DNA from: a virus | Strand: one strand, 5' to 3' | Virus record (IMG/VR): IMGVR_UViG_3300034684_000299 | Span: 1-64,000 of that record | Length of the DNA: 64,000 nucleotides | Shown: positions 402 through 20,448 of the stretch, piece by piece | Position numbering within the stretch: the stretch's first letter is position 1 | Layout: every line of letters starts with the position of its first letter | The notes under the pieces: model-generated | What the model was told of the DNA's origin: nothing | What the model saw: the letters and a program-made list of their open reading frames with translations, nothing else | Database searches by the model: none | Translations under genes and position numbers: made by a program

Positions 402-666
402 TTAAACAACCTCCTTTAAAGGTAAGTCAGGCTAAAGCCTGTAAGTCCACATCGCCAATGTTACAGTAGGTTTTTCAGTAACAGCACTTCTCCTACCCAT
501 CAGAGATGTTTAACCATTACCCACAGAGCTTGGAACTTGTGGAGCATCCCAAGGTGTCTATATATTCTACTGTAACGTAGCTAAAAAGTAATCCTTTTAG
601 CTTAGGCTAATCAACCGAGCTTGTTTTTCTACAAGCCCCCACCTCTATAGGTGGTGGGTAGTTGAC
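402..666 (-). ncRNA. omegaRNA (HEARO-type) scaffold of IscB #1
   Basis: Starts GTCAACTACCC + hairpin CCCACC..GGTGGG; conserved blocks GTTGATTAGCC, CTACGTTA, GTTAAACA, AACATTGGCGA shared with the other two loci. Confidence 0.85.
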
Positions 667-1883
667 ACTATTACGTTTGTAGGAACACTTCTACTAGAAG
701 TAGGTCCAATTCCTAATTGCCCATAGAAATTATTCCCCCAAGTATACAATTTACCCGTTTCTGTTATTGCTGCTGAATGATGATCTGATATACTTATAGC
801 AACCACTTTTTCTCCACCAAACATATCTATCAAAATAGGATAATGTTTTGGAATAGTGGTTCCATCACCTAATTTTCCTTCGCTATTGCTTCCCCAAGTA
901 TATAACTCACCTGATTCAATTAATGCTGCAGAATGAGCCCATCCTAAACTTACATCTACTACTTTTTTTCCAGAAATTATACAAGTTGGAATATGTCTTT
1001 CATCAGTAGAGCCATTTCCTAATTGTCCATAATAATTGTACCCCCAAGTATACAATTTTCCTGATTCAGTTATCGCGGCGGAATGTTCTACACCCAAACT
1101 TACAGCAATTACTTTTTCCCCATTAAACCTATCTATTAATCTTGGCGTATGTTTCTCAACAGTAGTTCCATCGCCTAATTGTCCAAAGTCATTGTCACCC
1201 CAAGTATACAATTTTCCTGATTCTGTGATTGCCGAAGAATGCCCTGAACCCAAACTTACAGTTACTATTTTTTCTCCATTAAATCTATTTATCCATAAAG
1301 GAAAGCTTCTATCAATAGTAAGCCCATTACCTAATTGACCATAGTCATTTTCACCCCACATATATAATTTACCTGATTCTGTTATTGCCGCTGAAGTATA
1401 ACCTCCCAAACTTATAGCTATTACTTTTTCTCCATTAAAACTATCAATTAATGTTGGCGTAGTTCTATTGTATGTATTTCCATTGCCTAATTGTCCATGT
1501 TGATTGTGCCCCCAAGTATACAATTTGCCCGTTTCTGTTATTGCTGCTGAATGATCTTGCCCTAAATCCACAGCAATTACTTTTTCTCCATCAAAACTAT
1601 TTATTAATGTTGGAACATATTTATCAGCAGTAGTTCCATCACCTAATTGTCCATATTCATTGTCACCCCAGGTATATAAACTCCCAAATTCTGTTATCGC
1701 TGAGGAATAGCCAACTCCCATACTAATTTTTTGAAACTTTATTGTTGGTTCAGGATTAGAAGGCACAAGGAACTCTGTAATAGTACAAAAAGTTCTAACA
1801 TCTCTAGTTCTTTTCCCGTTTTTTAATTTAGCATTTAAATAATATATATCAGACAATTTAATCGACTCCTTTTGTTGTATCAA
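645..1883 (-). CDS. RCC1-repeat beta-propeller protein A (7 repeats), putative tail/receptor-binding; probable start TTG 1856
   Basis: Seven HSxAITExGKLYTWGxNxxGQLG-type repeats of ~52 aa; last residues VSTTHHL* are encoded by the IS left end. Confidence 0.85.
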   Translation of the reverse strand: MIQQKESIKLSDIYYLNAKLKNGKRTRDVRTFCTITEFLVPSNPEPTIKFQKISMGVGYSSAITEFGSLYTWGDNEYGQLGDGTTADKYVPTLINSFDGEKVIAVDLGQDHSAAITETGKLYTWGHNQHGQLGNGNTYNRTTPTLIDSFNGEKVIAISLGGYTSAAITESGKLYMWGENDYGQLGNGLTIDRSFPLWINRFNGEKIVTVSLGSGHSSAITESGKLYTWGDNDFGQLGDGTTVEKHTPRLIDRFNGEKVIAVSLGVEHSAAITESGKLYTWGYNYYGQLGNGSTDERHIPTCIISGKKVVDVSLGWAHSAALIESGELYTWGSNSEGKLGDGTTIPKHYPILIDMFGGEKVVAISISDHHSAAITETGKLYTWGNNFYGQLGIGPTSSRSVPTNVIVSTTHHL

Positions 1884-3633
1884 TAACTTTGAGATAAATA
1901 GGTGGAAACTGAGGTATAAAACCTTTTTTATTACTTTTTAATATTATTTTATGATTAATTTTATTCTCTAAATCTTTCAAAGCTTCAGAAGGAGCGTTAA
2001 TATCTATCAATTGATTCAACTTTTGAAATCTAACGTCAAAAGTAAGTATTTCACCAGTTCGTAATTTGACTTTTAATAGCAATTTTTCAGATTCTATTCT
2101 AGAACATGGAATGAATGGAGCGACAAGATATTTAACCCCGGATCTGGGTTGCATACAGAATCTTAATGTTTCAATTCGTATAAAATTATAATAATACTTT
2201 TCAATTGGATTCTCAATTTTGATCCAATTATAGGCTTTATCAGTTTTTAAAAAGGTTGGTACACGTACATTAATCCAATTATATTTATACGAGAATGTTT
2301 TACGATTAATAGGTTTGTAAAATGAAATTATGAAATTAGTTGGCTTTATACTTAAATTACTGGATGTAACTTTAAGCTCATTTATTATACGTGAATAAAT
2401 GGATAGATTTTCCAAAGTAATCAACAGTTTGTTGAGTTCATGCTTGGTATGATTACTTGATATATTAGAAATTAAAAAGTTATAATTTTTTCTATCAAAA
2501 ATACTTTTGGATGCATTAATAAATAATAATTTTATAAATTCTTTATCAAAAGAAAGTGTTTGCAAATTTCGTAATGTTTCTCTGTGAATTGTAGTATTTA
2601 AATAAATTAAATCTCTTATAATATCAGCATAACCAATAGTATTTTCTAATATTATGTTTTTAAGAATAGAATTATTATAATCAGTATAATTCGTTGATAT
2701 TTTAGATATAGGAATAAAATTTTTAGTAAGTGAACTGAGAGACAAATAATTGAATATCTTACTCTCTTTTGTTTGAGTTGAAGACATTAAGTAATTTATT
2801 GTATTAAAATTAGACAAATAAGATGTATTAGAAATATAGTTTTTAACAATGTTTGTCGAGTTTTGATTATTTAAAATAAGAAAATTAGATACTTTTGGAT
2901 AATATAACTTTGTTTTTGGATAAATAATATGAGATACAGGTGCTTCTTGCATTCTGGTCAAAGTGAAATTCAAATTAGATACTTTTTCTTTCCTTTTAAT
3001 ATTTCTACTTTGAATATCTTTAGAAACTTGTATCCATTTTTCTAATTTTAACGTTGATAAAAACTTAAACCATCCTAAGATAGATTGTAAATCCATCATT
3101 TGCAAAATATCTTCGTCTCTTAACAAACCATAAGCATTTTCAAATAATTCATCGTATTGTTCAGAACTTCCTAAATCATATGAATTTCTGAAGTATTCGA
3201 AAAATATTCTTAATGCAGCTACACTTAAACTTGATATACTGTTCCCTATTTCAAACTCTCTTTCAACAGGTTCTACAATAGTTTCTGTTGGAGGTGGTAC
3301 ATATGGTTCCCCTGGTGTTGATCCTTCTATATATTGTGAAATATCCAATTTATCATAAACCCTAAAAATTTTTATCTCGCTTTGAGAGGACGGAATTATA
3401 TTGATATAATTTAAAAATTCATATGTATTATTCAAAGATAAATTAGAAAGTACATTTGCACCAGCTTCGGACAGATATCCCATTGACATTCGAATCCAAT
3501 TGTAAAATTCCGGATTATTGGGATCCGGAATTATAATATAATCTTTTGTTTTTAAATCAACAAAAGAAACAGCTTTTCTGTTGATTTTACTAATATTAAT
3601 TTGATTATTAATATTAATATAATTATATGGCAT
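1858..3633 (-). CDS. Hypothetical protein (591 aa), N/I/S-rich, in tail operon
   Basis: Long ORF coupled to upstream gene by TAATG overlap at 3631-3635; no recognisable motif. Confidence 0.7.
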   Translation of the reverse strand: MPYNYININNQINISKINRKAVSFVDLKTKDYIIIPDPNNPEFYNWIRMSMGYLSEAGANVLSNLSLNNTYEFLNYINIIPSSQSEIKIFRVYDKLDISQYIEGSTPGEPYVPPPTETIVEPVEREFEIGNSISSLSVAALRIFFEYFRNSYDLGSSEQYDELFENAYGLLRDEDILQMMDLQSILGWFKFLSTLKLEKWIQVSKDIQSRNIKRKEKVSNLNFTLTRMQEAPVSHIIYPKTKLYYPKVSNFLILNNQNSTNIVKNYISNTSYLSNFNTINYLMSSTQTKESKIFNYLSLSSLTKNFIPISKISTNYTDYNNSILKNIILENTIGYADIIRDLIYLNTTIHRETLRNLQTLSFDKEFIKLLFINASKSIFDRKNYNFLISNISSNHTKHELNKLLITLENLSIYSRIINELKVTSSNLSIKPTNFIISFYKPINRKTFSYKYNWINVRVPTFLKTDKAYNWIKIENPIEKYYYNFIRIETLRFCMQPRSGVKYLVAPFIPCSRIESEKLLLKVKLRTGEILTFDVRFQKLNQLIDINAPSEALKDLENKINHKIILKSNKKGFIPQFPPIYLKVIDTTKGVD

Positions 3634-5318
3634 TAGATTATTATTCCTTTAATTATTAGTGAGGATAAATCTTCAGTTGGTACCGCTTGAGACGATAGAT
3701 TCTTTATATTCAACAATGGTGTTTCCCCATTAGCCTCCAATTGTTCTTGAATTAATATCTTGTGTTGTTTATAAAATGGGCAGTTAGCATTACAATTTGT
3801 TGTTTGAAATTCTGGACGTCCTTTTGCACAATAATGCAACAATGTATTATCATCATAAATATTGTATTCACAATGCCCATAGTATTTGTTTTCTAACATT
3901 TCTTCAATTCCTAATATTTTTTGCCCATTTCTTGCTTCCACTATTAGATATAAATCATTATCCTTTGTTATATCTGTATATTTAGCCATAACTTCAACAT
4001 CTATTCTTTTATCAGAAGATACCATAGTTGCATCAGGTGCTCCCATTAAAGCCATAGAATCAGAACCTATAAGGTTTCTAAATTCAAATATTCCTGGATC
4101 AACTGTGGTTACTACTAAAGTATGAAATCCACCTAAACATACTTGTGATGCTTTTTTATATCCGAATCTATCTATTAACGTAGGCACAGTTTTGTTTACA
4201 GTAGTACCATCACCTAATTGACCATAATTGTTTAGTCCCCACATATATAATTTGCCTGATTCCGTTATTGCTGAAGAATGACCATTATATGGGGATACAT
4301 TACCACCTCCTAAATTCACAGTTATTATTTTTTCACCGTTAAATTTATCAATTAAAGTAGGAACACTTTTATTTACAATAGTTCCATCACCTAATTGTCC
4401 GGCATTGTTATATCCCCATGTATATAATTTCCCTGTTTCTGTTATTGCTGATGAATGCAAAAATCCTAAATTAACTACTTTTATTTTTTCTCCATTAAAT
4501 CTATCAATTAAAGTAGGAACACTTTTATTTACAGTAGTTCCATCTCCTAATGCTCCACCATAATCATTTCTACCCCACGTATATAATTTACCGGATTCTG
4601 TTATTGCTGAAGAATGCCATCCACCTAAACTTACAGCAATAACTTTTTCTCCACCAAAATTATCTATTAATATAGGAACATGTTTTTCTACAGTAGTACC
4701 ATCACCTAATTGTCCTTTATCATTCAAACCCCAAGTATATAACTTACCTGATTCTGTTATTGCTGCTGAATGATAGTGCCCTAAACTTACTGATATTACT
4801 TTCTCTCCATTAAATTTATCTATCAAAGTTGGTGTAGTTCGATTGGTAGTAGTTCCGTCTCCTAATCTACCATTGCCATTAAATCCCCAAGTATATAACT
4901 TACCTGATTCTGTTATCATCGCCGAATGATATTCACCCAAACTGACTATTTTTGCCTTATCTTCTTTAAAACTGTATATTAATGTTGGTGTCGTTCTTTG
5001 AGTGGTAGTTCCATCGCCTAATTGCCCATAATTGTTATAACCCCAAGTATATAACTTACCTGTTTTGGTAACAATAGCAGAATGGTAAAAACCAGCTCCT
5101 AAATCTTCTATTTGTTCCCCTTCAAATATTTTTAATTCCACAGGATTACTTTTATTGGCAGTAGTTCCATCTCCCAATTCTCCGTGTACATTGTATCCCC
5201 AGCTATATGTTGTATTAAAAATAATATTTCCTTCAACACTCAAAATTTCTTTTGGCCCAATCAAAAATGCAAAAGGTTCAACAGGGAACGCTTTGTTTTC
5301 AGCTATAATTTTATTCAA
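3633..5318 (-). CDS. RCC1-repeat beta-propeller protein B (7 repeats) with C-terminal Cys/His-rich domain
   Basis: Seven WGxNxxG repeats, then HCEYNIYD..YCA..CNANCPF motif. Confidence 0.85.
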   Translation of the reverse strand: MNKIIAENKAFPVEPFAFLIGPKEILSVEGNIIFNTTYSWGYNVHGELGDGTTANKSNPVELKIFEGEQIEDLGAGFYHSAIVTKTGKLYTWGYNNYGQLGDGTTTQRTTPTLIYSFKEDKAKIVSLGEYHSAMITESGKLYTWGFNGNGRLGDGTTTNRTTPTLIDKFNGEKVISVSLGHYHSAAITESGKLYTWGLNDKGQLGDGTTVEKHVPILIDNFGGEKVIAVSLGGWHSSAITESGKLYTWGRNDYGGALGDGTTVNKSVPTLIDRFNGEKIKVVNLGFLHSSAITETGKLYTWGYNNAGQLGDGTIVNKSVPTLIDKFNGEKIITVNLGGGNVSPYNGHSSAITESGKLYMWGLNNYGQLGDGTTVNKTVPTLIDRFGYKKASQVCLGGFHTLVVTTVDPGIFEFRNLIGSDSMALMGAPDATMVSSDKRIDVEVMAKYTDITKDNDLYLIVEARNGQKILGIEEMLENKYYGHCEYNIYDDNTLLHYCAKGRPEFQTTNCNANCPFYKQHKILIQEQLEANGETPLLNIKNLSSQAVPTEDLSSLIIKGIII

Positions 5319-5355
5319 TCTGAGTGTATTCGTGGTTTTTCACCATCCTTGTAAA

Positions 5356-7266
5356 TTAATCAAAATCCACAATTATTCGTCCACTTAAATTACTCTTAGT
5401 CTGATCTATTCGTTTGATTGTTAATGGAACAGATGTTTGATTTCTATTAGGTAGTTTAACGTATCCTTCCGCTTTGGAATATTCTAACCAAAACTGTTCT
5501 ACGGTAGTTTCATTGTTACCAACGATGATTTTGTCGTTAATCCCTATATTACTGATTGTCTTTAAAAGTACCAGTTTTCCAGGGAAACGCCATTGTTTTA
5601 CTTTCAATTCTCTTGTAGTAGAATCGTATTCCAAAACAATAGGTCTATCGTATCTGTAATATTCTATATAATCCCCTATCTTATAACGATTAACATCGTA
5701 AGGTTGTAAAAGGTTTATTTGAGATACAGCAACCATTTCAGGTGTACTTTCAACAACTTCTTCTAAAATATCTGTATGTGGTTTGATAGTAGCAGGAGCT
5801 AATTCAATATAATAATACGTATTTGTAGAATCATCTAATACTTTGATGGCCTCTTTCTTTCTATCTACATTAAAATCTACTTTTACCATACTTTCCATAT
5901 TTATCACATGGAAATTAACATCGTTGAGATTAAATCGTCCCCAGTCAATTTTGATATTGTTGTTACTATCTTTTTGCACTTTATACATAAAGTTGTTTCT
6001 AATTCGTAAGTTATCACTTAATTCGTCAACAAATAACTTATTTAAATTCATATAATATATCATACTGTAATTTGAAGCTATGATTTTTAATTTAAATTTT
6101 ATATTTGAAGTTATTACTTTTTTTGTAGTTATTTTATGTATTAAACTTCCATCTTCATTATACATATAAAATAGTTGGTACCCGGAATAAATATAAGCAT
6201 CTAAGATAATTGTTTCCGTTGGTAAAGGATCATAAATATATCTATCAAAGATTTTGCTTGTACTACCTGTTGAATCTTTTTCAAAGGTTAAATTTATAGA
6301 ATCAATTAAAGTACCTGTGCTATCCAAAAATTCTAATATATACTTTGAATTAGCGATTCCGGGTGTCAATTTAAATGCTGTTCTAAATCTAAATGGCAGA
6401 GAATACAAATTAGTAGTTTGTATATAATAATTTGAATCTGCAATATTAGAATTGTTAACTACAAGATTGTTCCCATCAGAGATATATAAACCATTAGCAG
6501 AAGTAATATCCCAATTGGTTAAATCTTTAAAATCATCGTTTAAAACTGAGGTTTTTGTAGTGGATAATGTTGACACAACGGTTTGACCATATTGCATTTC
6601 AATTTTATCTTCAGGTACTAAATCCAAAAAATCTATGGAGAATTTTGCTGTTGGTTTTGAAGAGCTTGGAACTAATAAATTAGTATATTCAAAATTATTT
6701 ATTACGGTATTTGGTTCTACATTCAAACCAAGATTATTTTTAACGTTAATTCCTTTAGTTAATACTCTGCCTTCAGGTGTTTGAACTACAACATGGTAAT
6801 TGCCACACGAAATTGAAGAAAATTTGCCTATTTTAGTGAATGTTTTTATACTTTCTTCTTCTATATCAGGCCATAATCGAGCAACAGGATTGTTGTATCC
6901 TGTTCCCCATACATTATCATCTTTATCGTATATAAACAAATTGTATTTATCTAATTGGTATCTAACAATGTGAGCAATAGGGGGAACAATAAACTGTTGT
7001 AATGTTGAAATAGGTAGTTCATCTCCAGTATTTAAGATACCATGTTCATTGTTACCCATAATCCAGATAGTATTACCTGTTTTAAATATTATTATATTTC
7101 CACCATTACATTGAAAATCAGAAACGTTAGTAATGAAAACTGTAGGAGTAGTATCACCATAATTCCATATATATAAAGTTCCATCTTCATTTAAAGAAAC
7201 ATATTTATCTTGAAACTTATCTAATTTAATTATATTAGTAAATTCAGTATAATTAATCAATGGCAT
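5356..7266 (-). CDS. Virion protein with degenerate N-terminal RCC1-like repeats and beta-rich (lectin-like?) domain
   Basis: IWIMGNNEHGILNTG, VWGTGYN, SISCGNYHVVVQTPEGRVLTKG resemble decayed RCC1 blades. Confidence 0.6.
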   Translation of the reverse strand: MPLINYTEFTNIIKLDKFQDKYVSLNEDGTLYIWNYGDTTPTVFITNVSDFQCNGGNIIIFKTGNTIWIMGNNEHGILNTGDELPISTLQQFIVPPIAHIVRYQLDKYNLFIYDKDDNVWGTGYNNPVARLWPDIEEESIKTFTKIGKFSSISCGNYHVVVQTPEGRVLTKGINVKNNLGLNVEPNTVINNFEYTNLLVPSSSKPTAKFSIDFLDLVPEDKIEMQYGQTVVSTLSTTKTSVLNDDFKDLTNWDITSANGLYISDGNNLVVNNSNIADSNYYIQTTNLYSLPFRFRTAFKLTPGIANSKYILEFLDSTGTLIDSINLTFEKDSTGSTSKIFDRYIYDPLPTETIILDAYIYSGYQLFYMYNEDGSLIHKITTKKVITSNIKFKLKIIASNYSMIYYMNLNKLFVDELSDNLRIRNNFMYKVQKDSNNNIKIDWGRFNLNDVNFHVINMESMVKVDFNVDRKKEAIKVLDDSTNTYYYIELAPATIKPHTDILEEVVESTPEMVAVSQINLLQPYDVNRYKIGDYIEYYRYDRPIVLEYDSTTRELKVKQWRFPGKLVLLKTISNIGINDKIIVGNNETTVEQFWLEYSKAEGYVKLPNRNQTSVPLTIKRIDQTKSNLSGRIIVDFD

Positions 7267-7274
7267 AAAAACAC

Positions 7275-8711
7275 CTACTTATATATTGGTGTTAAATCAA
7301 CATGAATTAAGGTTTGAGTCGTTTTTGTAGTAGTCATATTATTAACAGGTAATTGTATTGTTTCATTACCAAAACTTGTAGAAGAAATTAATGTAGGAAC
7401 TGTTTTGTTGGCAGTAGTTCCATCGCCTAATTGACCATTGCCATTCAAACCCCAAGTATATAATTTGCCTGATTCCGTTATTGCTGAGGAATGTCTATCT
7501 CCTAAACTTACAGCTATTACTTTTTCGCCATCGAAATTATCTATTAATATTGGTGTTGCCCTATTTGTAGTAGTTCCATCACCTAATCTACCATCACCAT
7601 TATAACCCCAAGTATATAATTTACCTGTCTCTGTTATTGCTGCTGAATGATAGTATCCTAAACTAACAGCAATTACTTTTTCTCCATTAAATCTATCTAT
7701 TAATGTAGGAACTGTTTTGTTGGCAGTAGTTCCATCGCCTAATTGACCATTGCCATTCAAACCCCACGTATATAATTTGCCTGATTCTGTTACCGCTGAA
7801 GAATGATACCATCCTAAACTAACAGCTATTATTTTTTCTCCATTAAATCTATTTATTAACGTAGGAATTGTTTTGTTGGCAGTAGTCCCATCACCTAGTT
7901 GCCCCGCATCGTTCAAACCCCAAGTATATAGTTTGCCTGATTCTGTTATCGCTGAAGAATGATATCTTCCTAAACTTACAGATATTACTTTTTCGTCATT
8001 AAACTTATCTATCAAAGTTGGTGTAGTTCTAGTAGTAGTAGTTCCATCACCTAATTGCCCAAAATTATTGTATCCCCATGTATATAATTTGCCTGATTCC
8101 GTTATTGCTGAGGAATGTCTATCTCCTAAACTTACAGCTATTACTTTTTCGCCATCGAAATTATCTATTAATATTGGTGTTGCCCTATTTGTAGTAGTTC
8201 CATCACCTAATCTACCATCACCATTATAACCCCAAGTATATAATTTACCTGTCTCTGTTATTGCTGCTGAATGATAGTATCCTAAACTAACAGCTATTAC
8301 TTTTTCGCCATTAAATCTATCTATTAATGTAGGAACTGTTTTGTTGGCAGTAGTTCCATCGCCTAATTCTCCATGAAAATTATATCCCCACGTATATAAT
8401 TTGCCTGATTCTGTTATTGCTGAAGAATGAGAGGAACCTGCTCCTATAGTATAATTCTCACCAAATCTTGACATTAGTACATACGAATCTATTTGATCAT
8501 TAAAAAATTTTATTTTTAAATTGTATGTTCCAGCCACTCTATTTTGTAATCTTACCCTTATTTTCCCTGTTACAGGGTCAAAATCAAAAGGTATAGGATT
8601 GTTTAAATCGTCGTATATTTTAAAATTACATCTTTTTCTTCCTAAACTATCGTATCCCATGACGGCAGGATTGAATGTTGCACCATCAGGAATGAATATC
8701 TCTGTACCCAT
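7275..8711 (-). CDS. RCC1-repeat beta-propeller protein C (7 repeats)
   Basis: Seven highly regular 52-aa repeats; SD AGGAGG. Confidence 0.88.
   Translation of the reverse strand: MGTEIFIPDGATFNPAVMGYDSLGRKRCNFKIYDDLNNPIPFDFDPVTGKIRVRLQNRVAGTYNLKIKFFNDQIDSYVLMSRFGENYTIGAGSSHSSAITESGKLYTWGYNFHGELGDGTTANKTVPTLIDRFNGEKVIAVSLGYYHSAAITETGKLYTWGYNGDGRLGDGTTTNRATPILIDNFDGEKVIAVSLGDRHSSAITESGKLYTWGYNNFGQLGDGTTTTRTTPTLIDKFNDEKVISVSLGRYHSSAITESGKLYTWGLNDAGQLGDGTTANKTIPTLINRFNGEKIIAVSLGWYHSSAVTESGKLYTWGLNGNGQLGDGTTANKTVPTLIDRFNGEKVIAVSLGYYHSAAITETGKLYTWGYNGDGRLGDGTTTNRATPILIDNFDGEKVIAVSLGDRHSSAITESGKLYTWGLNGNGQLGDGTTANKTVPTLISSTSFGNETIQLPVNNMTTTKTTQTLIHVDLTPIYK
7456..8368. repeat. Near-perfect intragenic direct repeat: 7456-7744 = 8080-8368 (289 bp, 2 mismatches, offset 624 = 4x156)
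   Basis: Direct base comparison; 7456-7670 and 8080-8294 are identical. Confidence 0.92.
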
Positions 8712-8724
8712 TATTTTTTTCCTC

Positions 8725-9462
8725 CTAACCTAACGTAATTTCTATATCTTCTATATACATTTCAGAAGTTTTTGTCACGGTAAAACTATATCCGTCTATT
8801 ATAGCATCAGTAGTTGTATATGTATCTGGAACAAGTTCTACTTTAACATCTTGAAATGCTGTTTCTGGTACAATAACTGAAAATTCATACCCGTCTATCA
8901 ATATTAATTCTGGAGCAATTATTTCCGATTTATTAGTAAATAAATCGCTATTATCTATTTCAAATGTTTGTAAGACAAGAAAAGCACGATAATAATATCT
9001 ATGAGTTGCTTCAGCGAAAACAATATTATCTACAAAAGCTTCGTTAGCGTATTTATTTCTAACATCGTTTCTAAGAACTATATCCCCGTCTGTAATAGAA
9101 GTCGGATAACTATTCAATTTTCTAACAATAACAGTGTATCTCCAATCCATAACTTCAGGTTCTTTCCAAGTTAAATGAACTTGATTTATATCAGGTATAT
9201 TATCAGCGACAAAATCTGTTACCGTTAAATTCAAGTTTATATCAGAAGGGAATTCAGGATTGTCTATATAATTAATTTGGCCATCTTTTTGCAAAACCAT
9301 TATAGATGTCGATTCAATTATCGCATTTTCTACATTTGTTATAGGTAATTGGACAAATCTTTTTGTATCATAAAGACTTATTAAATTACCTTCTTCTGTT
9401 ATTAAAAAATTATTTGTTATTTTTTTGACGTTTAAATTGCCTATTTGTTTGGCATTAGACAT
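8725..9462 (-). CDS. Tail protein with FN3-like domain
   Basis: VTDFVA..QVHLTWKEP..WRYTVIVRKLNSYPTSITDG is a typical phage-tail FN3-like signature; duplicated IDGY motif at C-terminus. Confidence 0.6.
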   Translation of the reverse strand: MSNAKQIGNLNVKKITNNFLITEEGNLISLYDTKRFVQLPITNVENAIIESTSIMVLQKDGQINYIDNPEFPSDINLNLTVTDFVADNIPDINQVHLTWKEPEVMDWRYTVIVRKLNSYPTSITDGDIVLRNDVRNKYANEAFVDNIVFAEATHRYYYRAFLVLQTFEIDNSDLFTNKSEIIAPELILIDGYEFSVIVPETAFQDVKVELVPDTYTTTDAIIDGYSFTVTKTSEMYIEDIEITLG

Positions 9463-9475
9463 ATTTTAACCTACC

Positions 9476-9598
9476 TTATCCTGCTTTGAAAGGTTCTAAT
9501 GTGACATCTACATATACTTCTGTACCTGTTTCAGATTGAATACCAGCTAAATCCAAAATTATTTCATAACCTGCAAAATCAAATTTTGCTACTATCTC
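9476..9598 (-). pseudogene. Out-of-frame 40-codon coding remnant, probably the original C-terminus of the 335-aa gene
   Basis: +1 frame EIVAKFDFAGYEIILDLAGIQSETGTEVYVDVTLEPFKAG*, no canonical start near its 5' end, resembles the GY-motif C-terminus of the next gene. Confidence 0.5.
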
Positions 9599-10586
9599 CT
9601 ATTCCCCAAAGATTATTTTGATTATCAATTACATAAGTCACATCATTATCCACTATTATTCTATTTTTAATAGTATATATATCTGGAGTTGAAACGGATA
9701 ATTCGTTATCACTTTTTTTAAATTTAATATTGTTGAATGTATCAGACATTTCATCTCTTTTAGATATCAATACATCTAATTTAGAATTTTGAGTTGAATA
9801 ATAATTATCGAGGTAAATATCTTCCTCATATACAGGAGCATTGGCTACCGATTCTGAGACTATCTTTATTATAGGAGAAGTAAGATTGTTTATTTTATTT
9901 AATATCAGAAAAAAGTCCTTAGTTAAATCAAGCGACATATTGCTATTAAAAGAACTACTGTTTTCTAAAAAACCAGTATTTGTTAAAGCAGTAGTATCTT
10001 GTAAAACAGTTTTATCTTCAGATAAATTCAATACTTGCGGATCAATAGATTCAGAAGGAGTATAACTATCGTATACATTGAGATACGTACCATATAAAAC
10101 AGCTAATTCGCTTGAAAAACTTGAATTCAAAGAATCAATTAAATAAGTTTTTTCGTTTTTAAAAAATGGACAATTTTCATTACATAGTTCTGTCTTATAA
10201 TATTGAACATTCATAGCACAATACATAGTACCAGTGTTTCCATCATAGATATTGTATATACAATGGGGATAATTTTTGTCATCTTCTACTAATAATCCTT
10301 TAATTATGCCTTCGCCTGTTAGAAATCCATAATTTTCATTTGGTGTTTGTATCCACAATCGCTCATAAAAACTTGAAGGTATTCTAGGATCTTTCAAAGA
10401 AACAACAACGGGAGTATTATCTATTAGTTTTAAAGCTTCTAATCCGACTAAGTTTTTTTCAAAAAAAACCCCAGCGAATTCACCGGGGTCGCTGTTCATC
10501 ATATGAAACTCATCACTAAATTCTTCTATATCTATTTCAACTGTATCCATTGGTACTATGAGTTTATTCAAAGTATTGAAAAACAT
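9579..10586 (-). CDS. Virion protein with Cys/His-rich domain; ends in one truncated RCC1-like blade
   Basis: HCIYNIYD..YCA..CNENCPF shared with protein B; ends VIDNQNNLWGIGDSS. Confidence 0.65.
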   Translation of the reverse strand: MFFNTLNKLIVPMDTVEIDIEEFSDEFHMMNSDPGEFAGVFFEKNLVGLEALKLIDNTPVVVSLKDPRIPSSFYERLWIQTPNENYGFLTGEGIIKGLLVEDDKNYPHCIYNIYDGNTGTMYCAMNVQYYKTELCNENCPFFKNEKTYLIDSLNSSFSSELAVLYGTYLNVYDSYTPSESIDPQVLNLSEDKTVLQDTTALTNTGFLENSSSFNSNMSLDLTKDFFLILNKINNLTSPIIKIVSESVANAPVYEEDIYLDNYYSTQNSKLDVLISKRDEMSDTFNNIKFKKSDNELSVSTPDIYTIKNRIIVDNDVTYVIDNQNNLWGIGDSSKI

Positions 10587-10648: not shown

Positions 10649-11941
10649 TTAAGATATTTTGTATCCATAACCGTCATTCCTTTGTAGTAATGTGAGATAT
10701 TTTGGATGTACATTACCGACACCATTTAATAAAAAGCTTGGGCTATGCCGTATTACAATTCTTCCAGTATGGATACCTTTATTTTTCCCTTTTGGTACTT
10801 TTGCTAATACTATATCGCCTGTTTTGTATCCCATATATGTTCGTTCTTTTGGGCGATAACTCTTTGGAAACCCATATTTATCCACAAAACACATTCTACG
10901 CATTCCATGTCCCATTGCTTTAATTTCTAAAACTTTCATATCTGGTTCGAGTTGAACGTTTTGGCCACTTTCTCCAACACAAGCTGCATCTATCCAATGT
11001 TCTTTTGGATACCCTTGTGTTTCACGATTGTATTTTGTCTGTCCTCCAGTTCCTACTTCGATAGGCAATCTTTCTTTCTTTAGTTGGTTAAACAGATACC
11101 AACGTGTTGCGTTGACTGCTGCTGTATCTTTGAGTGGCTTCTTTGATTCTGATTTAATTTGGTTCAGCCTTTCTGGATTATTGGCCAGAAATTCTTCGAT
11201 AGATTGATTACCTTTCTTCTGATTGCATTCGTGGCAAGCTAATGTTAGGTTACTTATTCTGTCACTTCCACCTTTAGATTTTGGTACGATATGTTCTATT
11301 TCTAATGGTATATTCTCTTTACCACAATATACACATTTCCTACCCCATTTCTCAAGGAGATACTCTTTTATTTCGTATCCATACAATGTTCCACGTTGAT
11401 ACTCTATTCCCTTAATTTCTGGATTTTGTAGTTTTTGAGTGTCAAAACGGACTAACTCCATTGAAATACCTGTAATTGGAGAAAAACGTCGAATACGTTT
11501 AATCCATGTGAGTATATTTTCTACACGACTTATAAGACTAGGTGGCAGCCAACCCTCTTTTCTCTTCCTATTCAAGAATCGTGGTTGCCTATATCTTGTC
11601 TTTCTGTTTCTGCGTGAACGTCTTACAGCTCTACGAGTATCTAAATTCTTCTTGATTACATATCCTCGGTGATGAATTACTGATGCCCAAATAACTTTCT
11701 TACCACGTTTAAAATCTGCTACTAAAGCGACTCCAGTATATTTACTGCCAGGATCGATCTTAACCTGTATTGGTTGAGTATCTCCACCTTCACGATCTTT
11801 CAGAATAATTGTGAATGGATGGTATCGAAATACTGCTGCTTTCCCTTTCTTCAATAACTCTCTTGCTCTTGCTGGATGGCAAGGCATTAATTGTTTCTTA
11901 TTCTTATCTAACACAAAAACTCGTTGTGCTGTTTTTCCCAT
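10649..11941 (-). CDS. iscB: IscB RNA-guided endonuclease #2 (RuvC + HNH motifs intact)
   Basis: QLMPCHPARAR, KIDPGS, RRAVRRSRRNRKTRYR, ELVRFD, CVYCG..EIEHIVPKSKGG..NLTLACHECN, HWIDAACVG. Confidence 0.95.
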   Translation of the reverse strand: MGKTAQRVFVLDKNKKQLMPCHPARARELLKKGKAAVFRYHPFTIILKDREGGDTQPIQVKIDPGSKYTGVALVADFKRGKKVIWASVIHHRGYVIKKNLDTRRAVRRSRRNRKTRYRQPRFLNRKRKEGWLPPSLISRVENILTWIKRIRRFSPITGISMELVRFDTQKLQNPEIKGIEYQRGTLYGYEIKEYLLEKWGRKCVYCGKENIPLEIEHIVPKSKGGSDRISNLTLACHECNQKKGNQSIEEFLANNPERLNQIKSESKKPLKDTAAVNATRWYLFNQLKKERLPIEVGTGGQTKYNRETQGYPKEHWIDAACVGESGQNVQLEPDMKVLEIKAMGHGMRRMCFVDKYGFPKSYRPKERTYMGYKTGDIVLAKVPKGKNKGIHTGRIVIRHSPSFLLNGVGNVHPKYLTLLQRNDGYGYKIS

Positions 11942-12187
11942 GGAAGTTACCTTCCTCTCCTTTTCGGGTTAAAGTGAGCCTCGCCAATGTTATTCTAGCT
12001 TTTTACGTTCAACACACTGGTTTCAACCCCGTATACCTGTTTAATGTTGAACGACAGGGCTTGGAACTGGCTCCAGTATTCCAAGGTGTCATGACCAGAA
12101 TAACGTAGCCCGATAGCTTTTCAGCCCTGGCTGAGGCTGGTCAACTCCGAGGCTTCAAGCCTCCGTCTTTAGACGGGGGTTGTTGAC
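11942..12187 (-). ncRNA. omegaRNA scaffold of IscB #2
   Basis: GTCAACAACCC, GTTGACCAGCC, CTACGTTAT, ATTAAACAGG, AACATTGGCGAGG. Confidence 0.85.
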
Positions 12188-18929: not shown

Positions 18930-20210
18930 CTACGTAAGAATTGCTACCTCCTTTCTATAACTATACCCATCAAAGCGTTGTACAACTGAAAAATATTTAT
19001 GATTTACACCTTGTACAACTCTTTGACCTTCCTTGTTTTTAATATCAAAATATCCACTGTTTCTACAAGTAACTTCTCCATACCATATGCCTTTATATTT
19101 TCCTTTTGGTATTTCAGCTTTAACCATATCTCCTGTTTGAAAGCCAAAGAAATATTTTTGTCTTGCTAAATATCCTCTCTGAAAGCCGTATTTATCTAAA
19201 TTTGTTCTACAATGACTACCTCTACCTTTTGCTTTTATATACAAAACATCTTTTGTCTTAAAATATAATTTATCTGGTGTACTTTGACCTACACAACAAG
19301 CATCAAAGTAATGTTCTTTTGGCAATCCTAATTTGATTCTATTCATTTTAGTCAAAGCACCTGTACCACATTCTACTTCTAGTCCACTATTACAAAGTAT
19401 ATCATAAACTTTCCATCTTGTAGAATTAACTACAGAAGTATCCTTTAATGTTTGTTTAACTTGTTTTTGTATATCAGGATAACCAAATTCTTCTGCTGTC
19501 ATATTACCTTTCTTCTGGTTGCACTCATGGCAAGCTAAGCAGAGATTATCAATTCTGTTTGTTCCACCCCTTGATTTTGGTATTATATGTTCTACTTCTA
19601 ATGGAATGTTTTCTTTTCCACAATAACAACATTTTCTACCAAACTTTTCAAGTAAATATTCCTTAACTTCATATCCTTGTAAAGTACCTTGTTGATACTC
19701 TATACCACTATTTTCAGGATTTCTCATTAATTGAGTGTCGAATTTAACATTTTCATAAGATATGTGAGTTAATGGAATTAATTTTTGTAACCTATTAACC
19801 CATGTTTTTATATTATTAACTCTACTTTCAAGTGAAGGTGGTATCCAACCCTCTATTTTTCTTCTGTTCAAAAATCTTGGTTTTCTATATCTCGTCTTTC
19901 TATTTCTTCTGTTGTGTCTATACATACGCCTTGCATCAAGTTTCTTTTTAATATCTGTTCTATGGTCTATTTGTCCCAACCATATTACATTATTATTTTG
20001 TAATATGGCTAATCCCGTATGTTTACTACCATAATCAATTTTTAATCTATATTCTTGTTTATTATCAGTGTCATCTACTGCTTTTTTAAGGATTATTGTA
20101 AATGGGTATTTTCTAAATATTGCGGCCTTACCTTGTTTAAGCAATTTTCTTGCAACTGCTTCATGACAAGGTGATAATGGTTTTCTATTAATATCTAATA
20201 CAAATACCAT
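18930..20210 (-). CDS. iscB: IscB RNA-guided endonuclease #3 (RuvC + HNH motifs intact)
   Basis: KPLSPCHEAVAR, KIDYGS, RRMYRHNRRNRKTRYR, YENVKFD, CCYCG..EVEHIIPKSRGG..CLACHECN, HYFDACCVG. Confidence 0.95.
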   Translation of the reverse strand: MVFVLDINRKPLSPCHEAVARKLLKQGKAAIFRKYPFTIILKKAVDDTDNKQEYRLKIDYGSKHTGLAILQNNNVIWLGQIDHRTDIKKKLDARRMYRHNRRNRKTRYRKPRFLNRRKIEGWIPPSLESRVNNIKTWVNRLQKLIPLTHISYENVKFDTQLMRNPENSGIEYQQGTLQGYEVKEYLLEKFGRKCCYCGKENIPLEVEHIIPKSRGGTNRIDNLCLACHECNQKKGNMTAEEFGYPDIQKQVKQTLKDTSVVNSTRWKVYDILCNSGLEVECGTGALTKMNRIKLGLPKEHYFDACCVGQSTPDKLYFKTKDVLYIKAKGRGSHCRTNLDKYGFQRGYLARQKYFFGFQTGDMVKAEIPKGKYKGIWYGEVTCRNSGYFDIKNKEGQRVVQGVNHKYFSVVQRFDGYSYRKEVAILT

Positions 20211-20448
20211 AGAAATTTCTCCTTTCTCTGCTTACGCAGGTAACATCTCCCTCGGCAATGTTATCTATGTTTACACGTATAGCACACTGGCTTAACCCAC
20301 TACACCTGTTTAATGCTATACGACAGAGCCTAGAACTAGGAGGGCATCCTAGGGTGTCATGACATAGATAACGTAGGTTCTGTTTCAAACCTTAGCCTGG
20401 TCAACATAGGGCTATCAAGCCCACGGCTTTAGCCGTTGGGTAGTTGAC
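20211..20448 (-). ncRNA. omegaRNA scaffold of IscB #3
   Basis: GTCAACTACCC, GTTGACCAGGC, CTACGTTAT, ATTAAACAGG, AACATTGCCGAGG. Confidence 0.85.

Follow-up and report, generated by a model that had tools for sequence, protein, structure and literature searches.

Phages are known to switch tropism by means of diversity-generating retroelements, as with the Mtd protein of Bordetella phage BPP-1, and of invertible tail-fibre segments, as with Mu Gin and P1 Cin. RCC1-like proteins, for their part, are common in large phages. In E. coli phages, the RCC1-like proteins W70_237-239, members of the PHROG family phrog_4219, were detected in purified virions by mass spectrometry (PMC11370258), and the virion proteome of phAPEC6 contains RCC1-like proteins annotated as 'DNA condensation proteins' (PMC7247149). 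The papers that we located have left the function of such proteins open or guessed at DNA condensation (PMC11370258, PMC7247149); these papers report no function, variable-site or recombination analysis, and our literature search found no paper treating RCC1-like phage proteins as receptor-binding proteins. The closest mechanistic analogue of the locus described here lies outside the viruses, in the HNWD WD40 repeat family of Podospora anserina (het-d, het-e and paralogs; PMC1805685, PMC2873952). Its members, like the genes studied here, encode beta-propeller repeats of very high inter-repeat identity, show concerted evolution within and between paralogous genes, confine hypervariability to a few positions per repeat on the interaction face, and do so without a dedicated mutator enzyme.

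Here we examined three genes, A, B and C, in a stretch of 64,000 nucleotides (the window; positions 1 to 64,000 of the virus record IMGVR_UViG_3300034684_000299). The phage genome is 185 kb long, 91% complete by CheckV, of 30% GC and very divergent; a megablast search with 20 kb of it against phages returned no match. An earlier note on this DNA had read the three genes as a recombination-driven receptor-binding diversification system. Its observation was confirmed and its interpretation is partly supported: the three proteins are probably heads that bind the host and evolve fast, reshaped by ordinary recombination between blades and by no dedicated diversification machine.

As the earlier note had counted, each gene contains seven repeats of about 156 bp. 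Pfam (PF00415 RCC1 / PF25390 WD40_RLD) identified seven tandem RCC1 stretches in each gene, with E values between 1e-94 and 5e-110 and RLD scores of 314-458 bits vs a cut-off of 150, and Tandem Repeats Finder gave a period of 156 bp. Blade number is 7 in every complete gene of this phage and of its relative G001; a 5-blade ortholog (P0002) on a 3.2-kb metagenome contig could result from assembly collapse. When the 21 blades were aligned, the columns W, G, N, G, L, G, G and P were invariant, and the five columns of highest entropy proved to be the x positions of the two motifs to which variation on a near-constant scaffold had been ascribed, namely the two of LG-xx-H (3.45 and 2.92 bits) and those of WG-x-N-xx-G (2.6-2.8 bits). 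These five positions differ in nearly every blade. We also noted second-tier variable sites at TT-xx-K/R-xx-P and D-x-F-x (2.0-2.45 bits), which are absent from the earlier note. The 7-residue loop insertion reported there was found in the LG loop of blade 6 of B (4242-4418), and insertions that change loop length recur at the same turn in three lineages.

A seven-bladed propeller fold is supported by full-length alignment to the UVR8 and HERC2 structures. Relatives in the PDB include the HERC2 RLD (E = 2e-84) and UVR8 (E = 9e-74, full length), and E values for the solved RCC1-like domains (UVR8, HERC2 RLDs, RPGR and RCC1) run from about 1e-84 down to 1e-38. Although the seven-blade fold, repeat length and motifs are shared with these proteins, blade-to-blade identity is far lower in all of them, and none has blades that differ almost only at face positions. 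Neither the GTPase exchange activity of RCC1 nor the photoreception of UVR8 has left any sign here. We know of no Ran in bacteria, and the name RCC1, or Ran exchange factor, is a transferred database label in this context.

In the alignment to UVR8, a plant protein, the first x of LG-xx-H corresponds to W233, W285 and W337, the x of WG-x to W94, W198, W250 and W302, and the invariant W to the buried ring (W92, W196 and others). Both of the former sets are at the UVR8 dimer interface (PMC7455749). An AF2 model of C, built on a 3-sequence alignment and of low confidence (mean pLDDT 57.8), has four strands per 52-residue unit, and its secondary structure puts both variable sites at the same strand end. 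Since the variable positions coincide with dimer-interface tryptophans of UVR8, all five per blade are predicted to lie on a single propeller face, as the earlier note had expected; because the model of C is poor, this mapping draws on homology and strand topology rather than on coordinates.

The variable sites had been described as rich in Y, W, F, H, R and D, a description that holds for the first four taken together and not for the charged residues. Tyr accounts for 25% of residues at variable sites vs 5.5% in the proteome (p = 3e-11), and Tyr, Trp, Phe and His together for 41% vs 13%; Asp and Glu are unenriched, and aliphatic residues, Ser/Thr and Lys/Arg are depleted. The scaffold, with a pN of 0.10 vs a pS of 0.47 (dN/dS 0.14), is under purifying selection. 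Among close blade pairs, variable-site pN is 0.39-0.43, scaffold pS 0.22-0.35 and scaffold pN 0.03-0.05. The ratio of variable-site pN to scaffold pS is 1.74 uncorrected and only 1.28 when cross-validated (5th percentile 0.98), and it falls below 1 in saturated pairs, so that positive selection is not proven. At the variable sites we infer diversifying rather than merely relaxed selection. Between C and its ortholog in G001, identity is 81% in the N-terminal domain, 77% in the scaffold and 15% (5/33) at the variable sites.

Recombination among blades left several traces. The scaffold has a nucleotide identity of 0.76 among blades of this genome and 0.85 among those of G001, against 0.70 across the two genomes, and for each blade of C some blade of this genome is a closer match than the positional ortholog in G001. 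This grouping by genome and not by position indicates concerted evolution. The PHI test was significant for this genome (p = 0.0065) and for G001 (p = 0.0005). Within C, on the minus strand, positions 7456-7744 match 8080-8368 over 289 bp with 2 mismatches at a four-blade offset, a recent conversion or duplication; the two differing sites (A/T and T/G) are too few to reveal any adenine bias. Positions 7387-7454 and 7699-7766 of the same gene are identical over 68 bp, and a GENECONV-like test supported blades C2 and C6 (global p = 0.026). Between genes, tract X487-X834 in G001 was globally significant (p = 0.008), and exact between-gene tracts of 83, 103 and 120 nt were found in relatives.

Exchange between genes is much less evident in this genome. 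The tracts that the earlier note held to be common to the genes do exist (25 bp identical in B and C at 4816-4840 and 8005-8029; TVEKH in blade 4 of both A and B) but are at chance level: the longest exact between-gene run is 31 nt and column-permuted alignments average 27-30 nt (P = 0.18-0.35), so such tracts alone are no evidence of exchange, and we dropped the 25-bp tract as a sign of it. Between-gene exchange here was not significant once corrected for all blade pairs, and the blades have diverged strongly at synonymous sites (pS about 0.47). Recombination among blades is upheld by the PHI test, by concerted evolution and by the conversion signals within C and between genes of G001, but not as regards exchange between the three genes of this phage.

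The independence from reverse transcriptase proposed earlier agrees with our scan, in which PF00078 had no match in the 185-kb genome. Resolvase and integrase Pfam models likewise had no match in the genome, leaving no serine or tyrosine recombinase and no invertase, and between 400 and 9600 inverted repeats are limited to one AT-rich pair of 19 nt. A, B and C run in direct orientation on the minus strand; reciprocal crossovers would delete the intervening genes, which would leave non-reciprocal conversion as the only viable form. Given these absences, the insignificant between-gene exchange, the chance-level tracts and the high pS, a 'system' of '21 interchangeable blades' is not supported. 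Recombination reshuffles or homogenises blades; it does not make the new loop residues. Contig L019 has 1 mismatch to G001 in 9.4 kb, yet 51 substitutions across exactly two blades. The variant goes on to match the distal end of the G001 contig (99.98% identity), and it is as long as G001 would be without the 65 kb that are skipped. Because it may be a chimeric assembly through repeats, we dropped it as a clean population blade swap.

Each propeller sits in a different protein. Gene C (7275-8711, minus strand) consists of a conserved 88-aa N-terminal domain (8448-8711), the propeller (7389-8447) and a conserved 37-aa tail (7275-7388). Directly upstream is the gene of a 245-aa protein (8725-9462, minus strand); this gene pair recurs in relatives (251 aa, then an RCC1 gene), and a paralog of the 245-aa protein precedes another RCC1 gene in G001. 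An N-terminal anchor common to C and an 834-aa protein of G001, alike by eye, was rejected (BLASTP E = 1.9). The contig index listed no sequence identical to C, the protein collection contained nothing at 90% identity or more to B or C, and searching metagenomes for the N-terminus of C gave no match in a first scan. Protein D (636 aa; 5356-7266, minus strand) has an RCC1-like but degenerate N-terminus, by Pfam a fourth propeller region; it is 61% and 51% identical to its counterparts in two relatives and is without the hypervariable pattern.

Gene B (3633-5318, minus strand) encodes a 195-aa-type host protein into which a seven-blade propeller (4113-5210, minus strand, about residues 37-402, including the blade with the loop insertion) is placed after about residue 36. 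Residues 1-36 and 403-561 of B match residues 7-42 and 37-195 of the G001 protein p195, and the Cys-rich C-terminal host domain (3633-4112, minus strand) is 53% identical to this 195-aa protein and has a paralog in a 335-aa protein (9579-10586). The propeller is missing from the G001 homolog and occupies a different site in L014. By these alignments the propeller of B is a whole-domain insertion, newly described here. The start of B is a TTG with no adjacent Shine-Dalgarno sequence, and an AF2 model of the 195-aa host domain had a pLDDT of 37.

Gene A (645-1883, minus strand) comprises a short N-terminal leader and a seven-blade propeller, with its likely start a TTG at 1856 behind AAGGAG at 1870-1865. 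The left end of an IscB element begins inside its 3' end and supplies the final 7 codons and the stop; the HEARO/omega RNA of this element lies at 441-666 on the minus strand (Rfam RF02033, 157.7 bits; alignment of three element ends). Gene A may be in decay rather than functional: its scaffold pN of 0.134 is the highest, a number of its motifs are broken, and the element supplies its C-terminus. A 591-aa protein (1858-3633, minus strand) has no family match and is kept in G001 (606 aa, 36% identity).

The three genes belong to a long co-directional run of very large proteins, apart from the replication block. Pfam and PHROG scans gave no match for the neighbours of 591, 245, 335, 324, 211, 211, 215, 701, 1372, 1677, 105 and 239 aa, nor for ten ORFs at the contig end, and a 1365-aa protein had only a weak PHROG tail match (E = 2e-6). 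Pfam models for Baseplate_J, gp25 and sheath had zero matches genome-wide. For the 701- and 1365-aa proteins, TBLASTN against GenBank phages gave nothing useful, and a protein-atlas look-up of the former gave sub-threshold matches only. With no match of the neighbouring genes to any known family of tail, baseplate, sheath or capsid proteins, the label 'tail operon' derives from the order of the genes, the size of the proteins and weak PHROG tail matches.

Compared with the described systems, the locus departs from HNWD in fold and setting (RCC1 in a phage, as against WD40 in a fungal NOD-like receptor), in a blade number fixed at seven rather than highly variable, in the absence of RIP (fungal repeat-induced point mutation), in weak between-gene exchange in this genome, and in selection, which is positive in HNWD and here reaches a cross-validated ratio of 1.28 (5th percentile 0.98). 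With Mtd and the Gin and Cin segments it shares variation focused on a presumed ligand-binding surface, a constant scaffold and presumably a role in adsorption. Unlike retroelements, however, it has no reverse transcriptase, and unlike invertible segments or shufflons it has no invertase or inverted repeats, all three genes being on one strand; change here would come from general recombination and mutation over evolutionary time. The W70 and phAPEC6 proteins are alike in PHROG family, since all three genes score best against phrog_4219, and in having several paralogs per genome. Those proteins were found in purified particles; this phage is unrelated to W70 and phAPEC6 at the nucleotide level, and its propellers are fused to or inserted in other domains.

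For A, B and C we infer a place in the virion and the binding of a receptor. We consider it reasonably likely that they are paralogous binding modules of the particle, probably distal tail-fibre or baseplate-periphery parts, whose face binds a ligand and which change by general recombination and mutation. Each carries a seven-bladed RCC1-like propeller, one face of which would be a ring of about 35 Tyr-rich variable residues serving as the ligand-binding surface; every blade would contribute residues at two places, the turn between strands 2 and 3 (LG-xx-H) and the beginning of the loop from strand 4 to strand 1' (WG-x-N-xx-G). Purifying selection maintains the scaffold, and in the replicating phage DNA pool general homologous recombination would repeatedly homogenise and reshuffle it; blades of 156 bp would undergo gene conversion and unequal exchange, for the most part with others of their own gene and now and then with those of another. 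Face residues would change through point mutations and altered loop lengths, with selection for binding keeping them different, and entire propellers would also be transferred as cassettes into loops of further structural proteins, gene B being an example.

The 21 blades could instead be an active combinatorial library, retroelement-like and recombination-based, whose high-frequency exchange among the three genes continuously yields new receptor specificities. The significant PHI tests, the recent conversion tracts within C, the tracts that relatives share between genes, some globally significant and some exact over 83-120 nt, and L019, near-identical to G001 but for 51 substitutions in two blades, would all fit. 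We nevertheless regard this as unlikely, because between-gene tracts here are at chance and not globally significant, blades differ at about half of synonymous sites, there is no reverse transcriptase, serine/tyrosine recombinase or inverted repeats, reciprocal crossover between directly oriented genes deletes those between, L019 may be chimeric, and the conversions seen copy existing blades and so lower diversity. It also seems improbable that a recently amplified repeat merely varies where its surface is under least constraint, with structural or decorative propellers, neutral variation and no role in specificity. A composition unlike drift at 30% GC (Tyr up five-fold; aliphatic residues, Ser/Thr and Lys/Arg down), loop-length insertions at the same turn in three lineages and the placement of all variable sites on the face that UVR8 uses for protein contact argue against neutrality, although a variable-site omega of about 0.7-1.3 is compatible with it and the same positions hold family-specific residues in other RCC1-like proteins.

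Very improbable, in our judgement, is an intracellular role, such as taking over the host or organising DNA, which the database name 'regulator of chromosome condensation / DNA condensation protein' would suggest. PHROG does place these families under DNA/RNA metabolism, and the phAPEC6 authors speculated on a DNA-ordering role, but the label was carried over from eukaryotic RCC1, members of the same PHROG occur in purified virions, the genes belong to a co-directional series of very large proteins set apart from the replication block, and modular N- and C-terminal domains with propeller presence or absence between relatives are typical of adsorption proteins.

Taken as binding heads of the particle, the propellers offer a concrete model of how such heads can be evolvable: a frozen scaffold, a Tyr-rich ring, concerted evolution, and cassettes at different sites of one host protein. 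If confirmed, this would extend the repeat-shuffling diversification of fungal immune receptors to viruses, account for the many RCC1 paralogs in large phages and provide a naturally tolerant scaffold on which to engineer binding specificity in phages that infect laboratory bacteria. More speculatively, and with rather little expectation on our part, RCC1 blades may be a shared pool within the clade, in which conversion within and between genes and mutation at five face codons, together with propeller cassettes hopping into loops of various virion proteins, generate new adsorption specificities at a rate high enough for blade-swap variants to be visible within a single natural population. If true, such a shared blade pool would add to retroelements and invertases a third, enzyme-free way of changing phage tropism.

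The window covers the initial 64 kb of the source contig, an IMG/VR record of 185,437 bp in a single piece, 91% complete by CheckV. G+C content is ∼30%, and a nucleotide search against GenBank phages returned no match. Genes A (645-1883; 412 aa), B (3633-5318; 561 aa) and C (7275-8711; 478 aa), all on the minus strand, are positioned at the downstream end of a co-directional minus-strand gene run (645-33582), beyond which a fused beta/beta' RNA polymerase, a primase, a helicase and an exonuclease are encoded on the plus strand. As the earlier note had described, each of the three proteins holds seven RCC1 repeats (Pfam), with a repeat period of 156 bp (Tandem Repeats Finder); no RCC1 blades were found elsewhere in the genome. 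Propeller closure is the usual one, a strand on the N-terminal side completing the last blade. Between these genes lie a 591-aa protein without a family match and the 636-aa protein D (5356-7266), which has a degenerate RCC1-like N-terminus (Pfam WD40_RLD, E = 2e-10), shows 61% and 51% identity to the homologs of two relatives and, unlike A, B and C, lacks the hypervariable pattern. A ∼250-aa protein is encoded 5' of an RCC1 gene in each relative (8725-9462 in the window; 7770-8525 in L001, the locus of the relative phage contig G001; 378-1133 in L003, a contig from another relative), and its paralog (E = 5e-9; L001 17117-17866) lies 5' of a second RCC1 gene set in G001. This arrangement suggests a recurring two-gene unit.

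The 21 blades were cut in register (WG...LYT) and aligned. Columns W, G, N, G, L, G, G and P are invariant, and the five columns of highest entropy are exactly the x positions of WG-x-N-xx-G (2.6-2.8 bits) and LG-xx-H (3.45 and 2.92 bits), where variation had been thought to concentrate; below them comes a second tier at 2.0-2.45 bits, made up of TT-xx-K/R-xx-P and D-x-F-x. Gene B does carry the 7-residue insertion that had been reported for the loop of one blade. Tyrosine makes up 25% of the residues at the five variable sites versus 5.5% in the proteome, and aromatics plus histidine 41% versus 13%; aliphatic residues, Ser/Thr and Lys/Arg are depleted. The claimed richness in Y/W/F/H/R/D stands for tyrosine and for aromatics plus histidine, but not for R and D.

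Over pooled blade pairs the scaffold, i.e. the remaining codons, has a pN of 0.10 and a pS of 0.47 (dN/dS 0.14): purifying selection, and not recent homogenisation alone, maintains the constant framework. At the five variable codons these pairs have a saturated pN of ∼0.6. Among the closest pairs, those with a scaffold identity of at least 90%, variable-site pN is 0.39, against a scaffold pS of 0.22 and a scaffold pN of 0.027. Since the choice of pairs by scaffold identity biases this comparison, it was rerun with pairs selected on half of the scaffold codons and measured on the other half, giving a cross-validated variable-site pN of 0.43 versus a pS of 0.35 (ratio 1.28, 5th percentile 0.98). 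The variable sites evolve ∼10 times faster than other replacement sites and at or above the silent-site rate; an omega above 1 is not proven, and plain neutrality is disfavoured by the composition of these sites, with its Tyr excess and its deficit of aliphatic, Ser/Thr and Lys/Arg residues. Scaffold replacement divergence is greatest in gene A (pN 0.134, compared with 0.052 for C). One of its blades has a 2-residue deletion, and the LG/H motifs of two blades are broken; given these defects and a C-terminus derived from an insertion element, it may be under relaxed constraint.

The C propeller aligns over its full length with the solved RCC1-like domains of HERC2 (E = 2e-84) and UVR8 (E = 9e-74). 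At the residue level, three LG-xx-H turns of C align on three UVR8 GWRHT motifs, which pairs the first x with W233, W285 and W337; for WG-x, the x aligns with W94, W198, W250 and W302, and the invariant W of the blades with W92, W196 and the remaining members of that ring. The W233/W285/W337 and W94/W198/W250/W302 groups are located at the UVR8 dimer interface, and the W92-type ring is buried in the sheets (PMC7455749). An AF2 model of C, which is weak (mean pLDDT 57.8), has four strands per blade; in it, LG-xx-H connects strands 2 and 3 as a turn, and the loop that leads out of strand 4 into the following blade starts with WG-x-N-xx-G. Both sites are at one end of the sheet in an antiparallel meander. 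Homology to UVR8 and strand topology, rather than model coordinates, therefore place the variable sites on one face, as the earlier note had predicted.

The clade is rare, with only three of 5.8 billion proteins having the N-terminal domain of C in common. G001, a 183.5-kb IMG/VR contig, matches the source phage in gene order (1363, 374, 251, RCC1 487, 635, 195 and 606 aa). Between C and its ortholog, the 487-aa protein of G001, identity is 81% for the N-terminal domain, 77% for the propeller scaffold and 70% for the C-terminal tail, versus 15% (5/33) at the variable positions. This ortholog carries a 9-residue insertion in an LG-xx-H turn, and L014, a shorter contig from another relative, a smaller one in the same turn, indicating that the turn tolerates length change. 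The third ortholog, P0002 (374 aa; L003 1135-2259, on a 3.2-kb metagenome contig), has five blades, which may reflect a genuinely smaller propeller or near-identical repeats that were collapsed in the assembly.

With variable codons removed, mean blade identity is 76% in the source genome and 85% in G001, and 70% when blades of one are compared with those of the other. For each C blade, the source genome contains a blade that resembles it more than the positional ortholog does, and lineage-specific scaffold changes have spread to all blades, e.g. GQVG throughout P0002; the blades show concerted evolution. The PHI test gave p = 0.0065 for the source genome (0.026 without the duplicated C blades) and 0.0005 for G001. 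Inside C, 7456-7744 repeats 8080-8368 (289 bp, two mismatches, an offset of four blades) and 7387-7454 is an exact copy of 7699-7766; these are recent conversions, and the blade number is still seven. The 25-bp identity between B and C is real, but the longest exact between-gene tracts of the source genome (23-31 nt) are about as long as those from permuted alignments (P = 0.18-0.35), and none of its between-gene blade pairs is globally significant. G001 has a globally significant tract common to two RCC1 genes (p = 0.008) and exact between-gene tracts of up to 83 nt, and its third RCC1 gene, cut by the contig end, shares 120 nt exactly with the C ortholog, long loop insertion included; in L014, a C-like and a B-like gene have a 103-nt exact tract in common. 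The PHI tests, concerted evolution and the conversions in C support recombination among blades, one part of the earlier proposal; between-gene exchange in the source genome is weak.

As to mechanism, a retroelement system was rejected, the genome being without a reverse transcriptase, in agreement with the suggested RT independence. An invertible-segment system was likewise rejected: the genome has no resolvase/invertase or tyrosine recombinase, and the A-B-C region no meaningful inverted repeats. Because A, B and C are in direct orientation, the intervening genes would be lost in a reciprocal crossover, which leaves non-reciprocal conversion as the one viable exchange between them. A candidate population variant, L019 (JGI 3300035539, Ga0376501_00006; a 118,023-bp contig from a sister sample), has one mismatch to G001 over 9.4 kb and then 51 differing positions spanning exactly two blades of the C ortholog, the divergent blades being an exact copy of those two positions upstream. 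This difference resembles an expected blade swap, but we do not count it as proof, since beyond the last blade L019 runs into the far end of the G001 contig at 99.98% identity and its size equals that of G001 minus the skipped ∼65.3 kb. At L019 10001-11641 and beyond, six 5' blades of the G001-type C ortholog are joined to the 3' end of another RCC1 gene, the one at the G001 contig end. L019 is a chimeric assembly induced by the repeats, or else a variant in which recombination between direct RCC1 repeats caused a deletion.

Residues 1-36 and 403-561 of B have their counterparts in residues 7-42 and 37-195 of a propeller-free 195-aa protein of G001 (53% identity for the C-terminal part of B), and in the L014 homolog the propeller begins only after a stretch colinear with residues 1-94 of that protein. 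One host protein thus occurs in three forms across the three relatives: lacking a propeller, with one at residue 36 and with one near residue 97; in addition to what the earlier note described, whole propellers have been inserted into one virion-type protein at different sites. In B, the C-terminal host domain (3633-4112) has a four-cysteine motif ending CN-x-NCPFY; a paralog of it (∼30% identity) is part of a 335-aa protein two genes upstream of C (9579-10586), and another is part of the G001 374-aa protein. Gene B has TTG 5318 as its start codon and lacks a nearby Shine-Dalgarno sequence (5318-5346). The codons just 5' of this start resemble the N-terminus of the G001 homolog and are interrupted by an in-frame TGA (5342-5340), so the ancestral start seems to have been lost.

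3' of the 591/606-aa gene, the source genome has gene A alone, where G001 has five genes (L001 14328-20955) for proteins of 335, 587, 249, 185 and 834 aa. Two of these proteins contain RCC1 propellers, the 834-aa protein having two. The conserved 591/606-aa and 230/240-aa genes flank what is a hypervariable cassette locus, whose source-genome counterpart is gene A plus an IscB element. Three IscB-type elements lie inside the structural gene run on the minus strand, each with a HEARO/omega RNA (Rfam RF02033, 148-161 bits) and then an RRXRR+HNH protein: RNA 441-666 with ORF 3-401, RNA 11969-12187 with ORF 10649-11941, and RNA 20240-20448 with ORF 18930-20210. The first element has its left end at GTCAAC within gene A and provides the last seven codons and stop of A.

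The neighbours of A, B and C have no match to known tail, baseplate, sheath or capsid families. The best PHROG for all three is phrog_4219; three phrog_4219 proteins of E. coli phage W70 were found in purified particles (PMC11370258), and the phAPEC6 virion proteome includes RCC1-like 'DNA condensation proteins' (PMC7247149), whose function in prokaryotes its authors called unknown. Membership of this family is the best indirect support for a particle role. The modular ends, propeller presence or absence among relatives and the Tyr-rich variable face point in the same direction, and for A, B and C we regard a predicted role in binding, as part of the particle, as the likeliest reading and a reasonably probable one.

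The WD40 repeats of Podospora HNWD proteins evolve in concert, both inside one paralog and from one paralog to another, and each has a few selected positions on an interaction face (PMC1805685; PMC2873952). The mechanism of the phage blades matches, but they have an RCC1 fold and a fixed blade number, positive selection is unproven for them, and between-gene exchange in the source genome is weak. The observed pattern of variation is confirmed and its interpretation as a diversification system partly supported: the A, B and C propellers are a variation on known repeat-based diversification, with whole-propeller insertion in addition.
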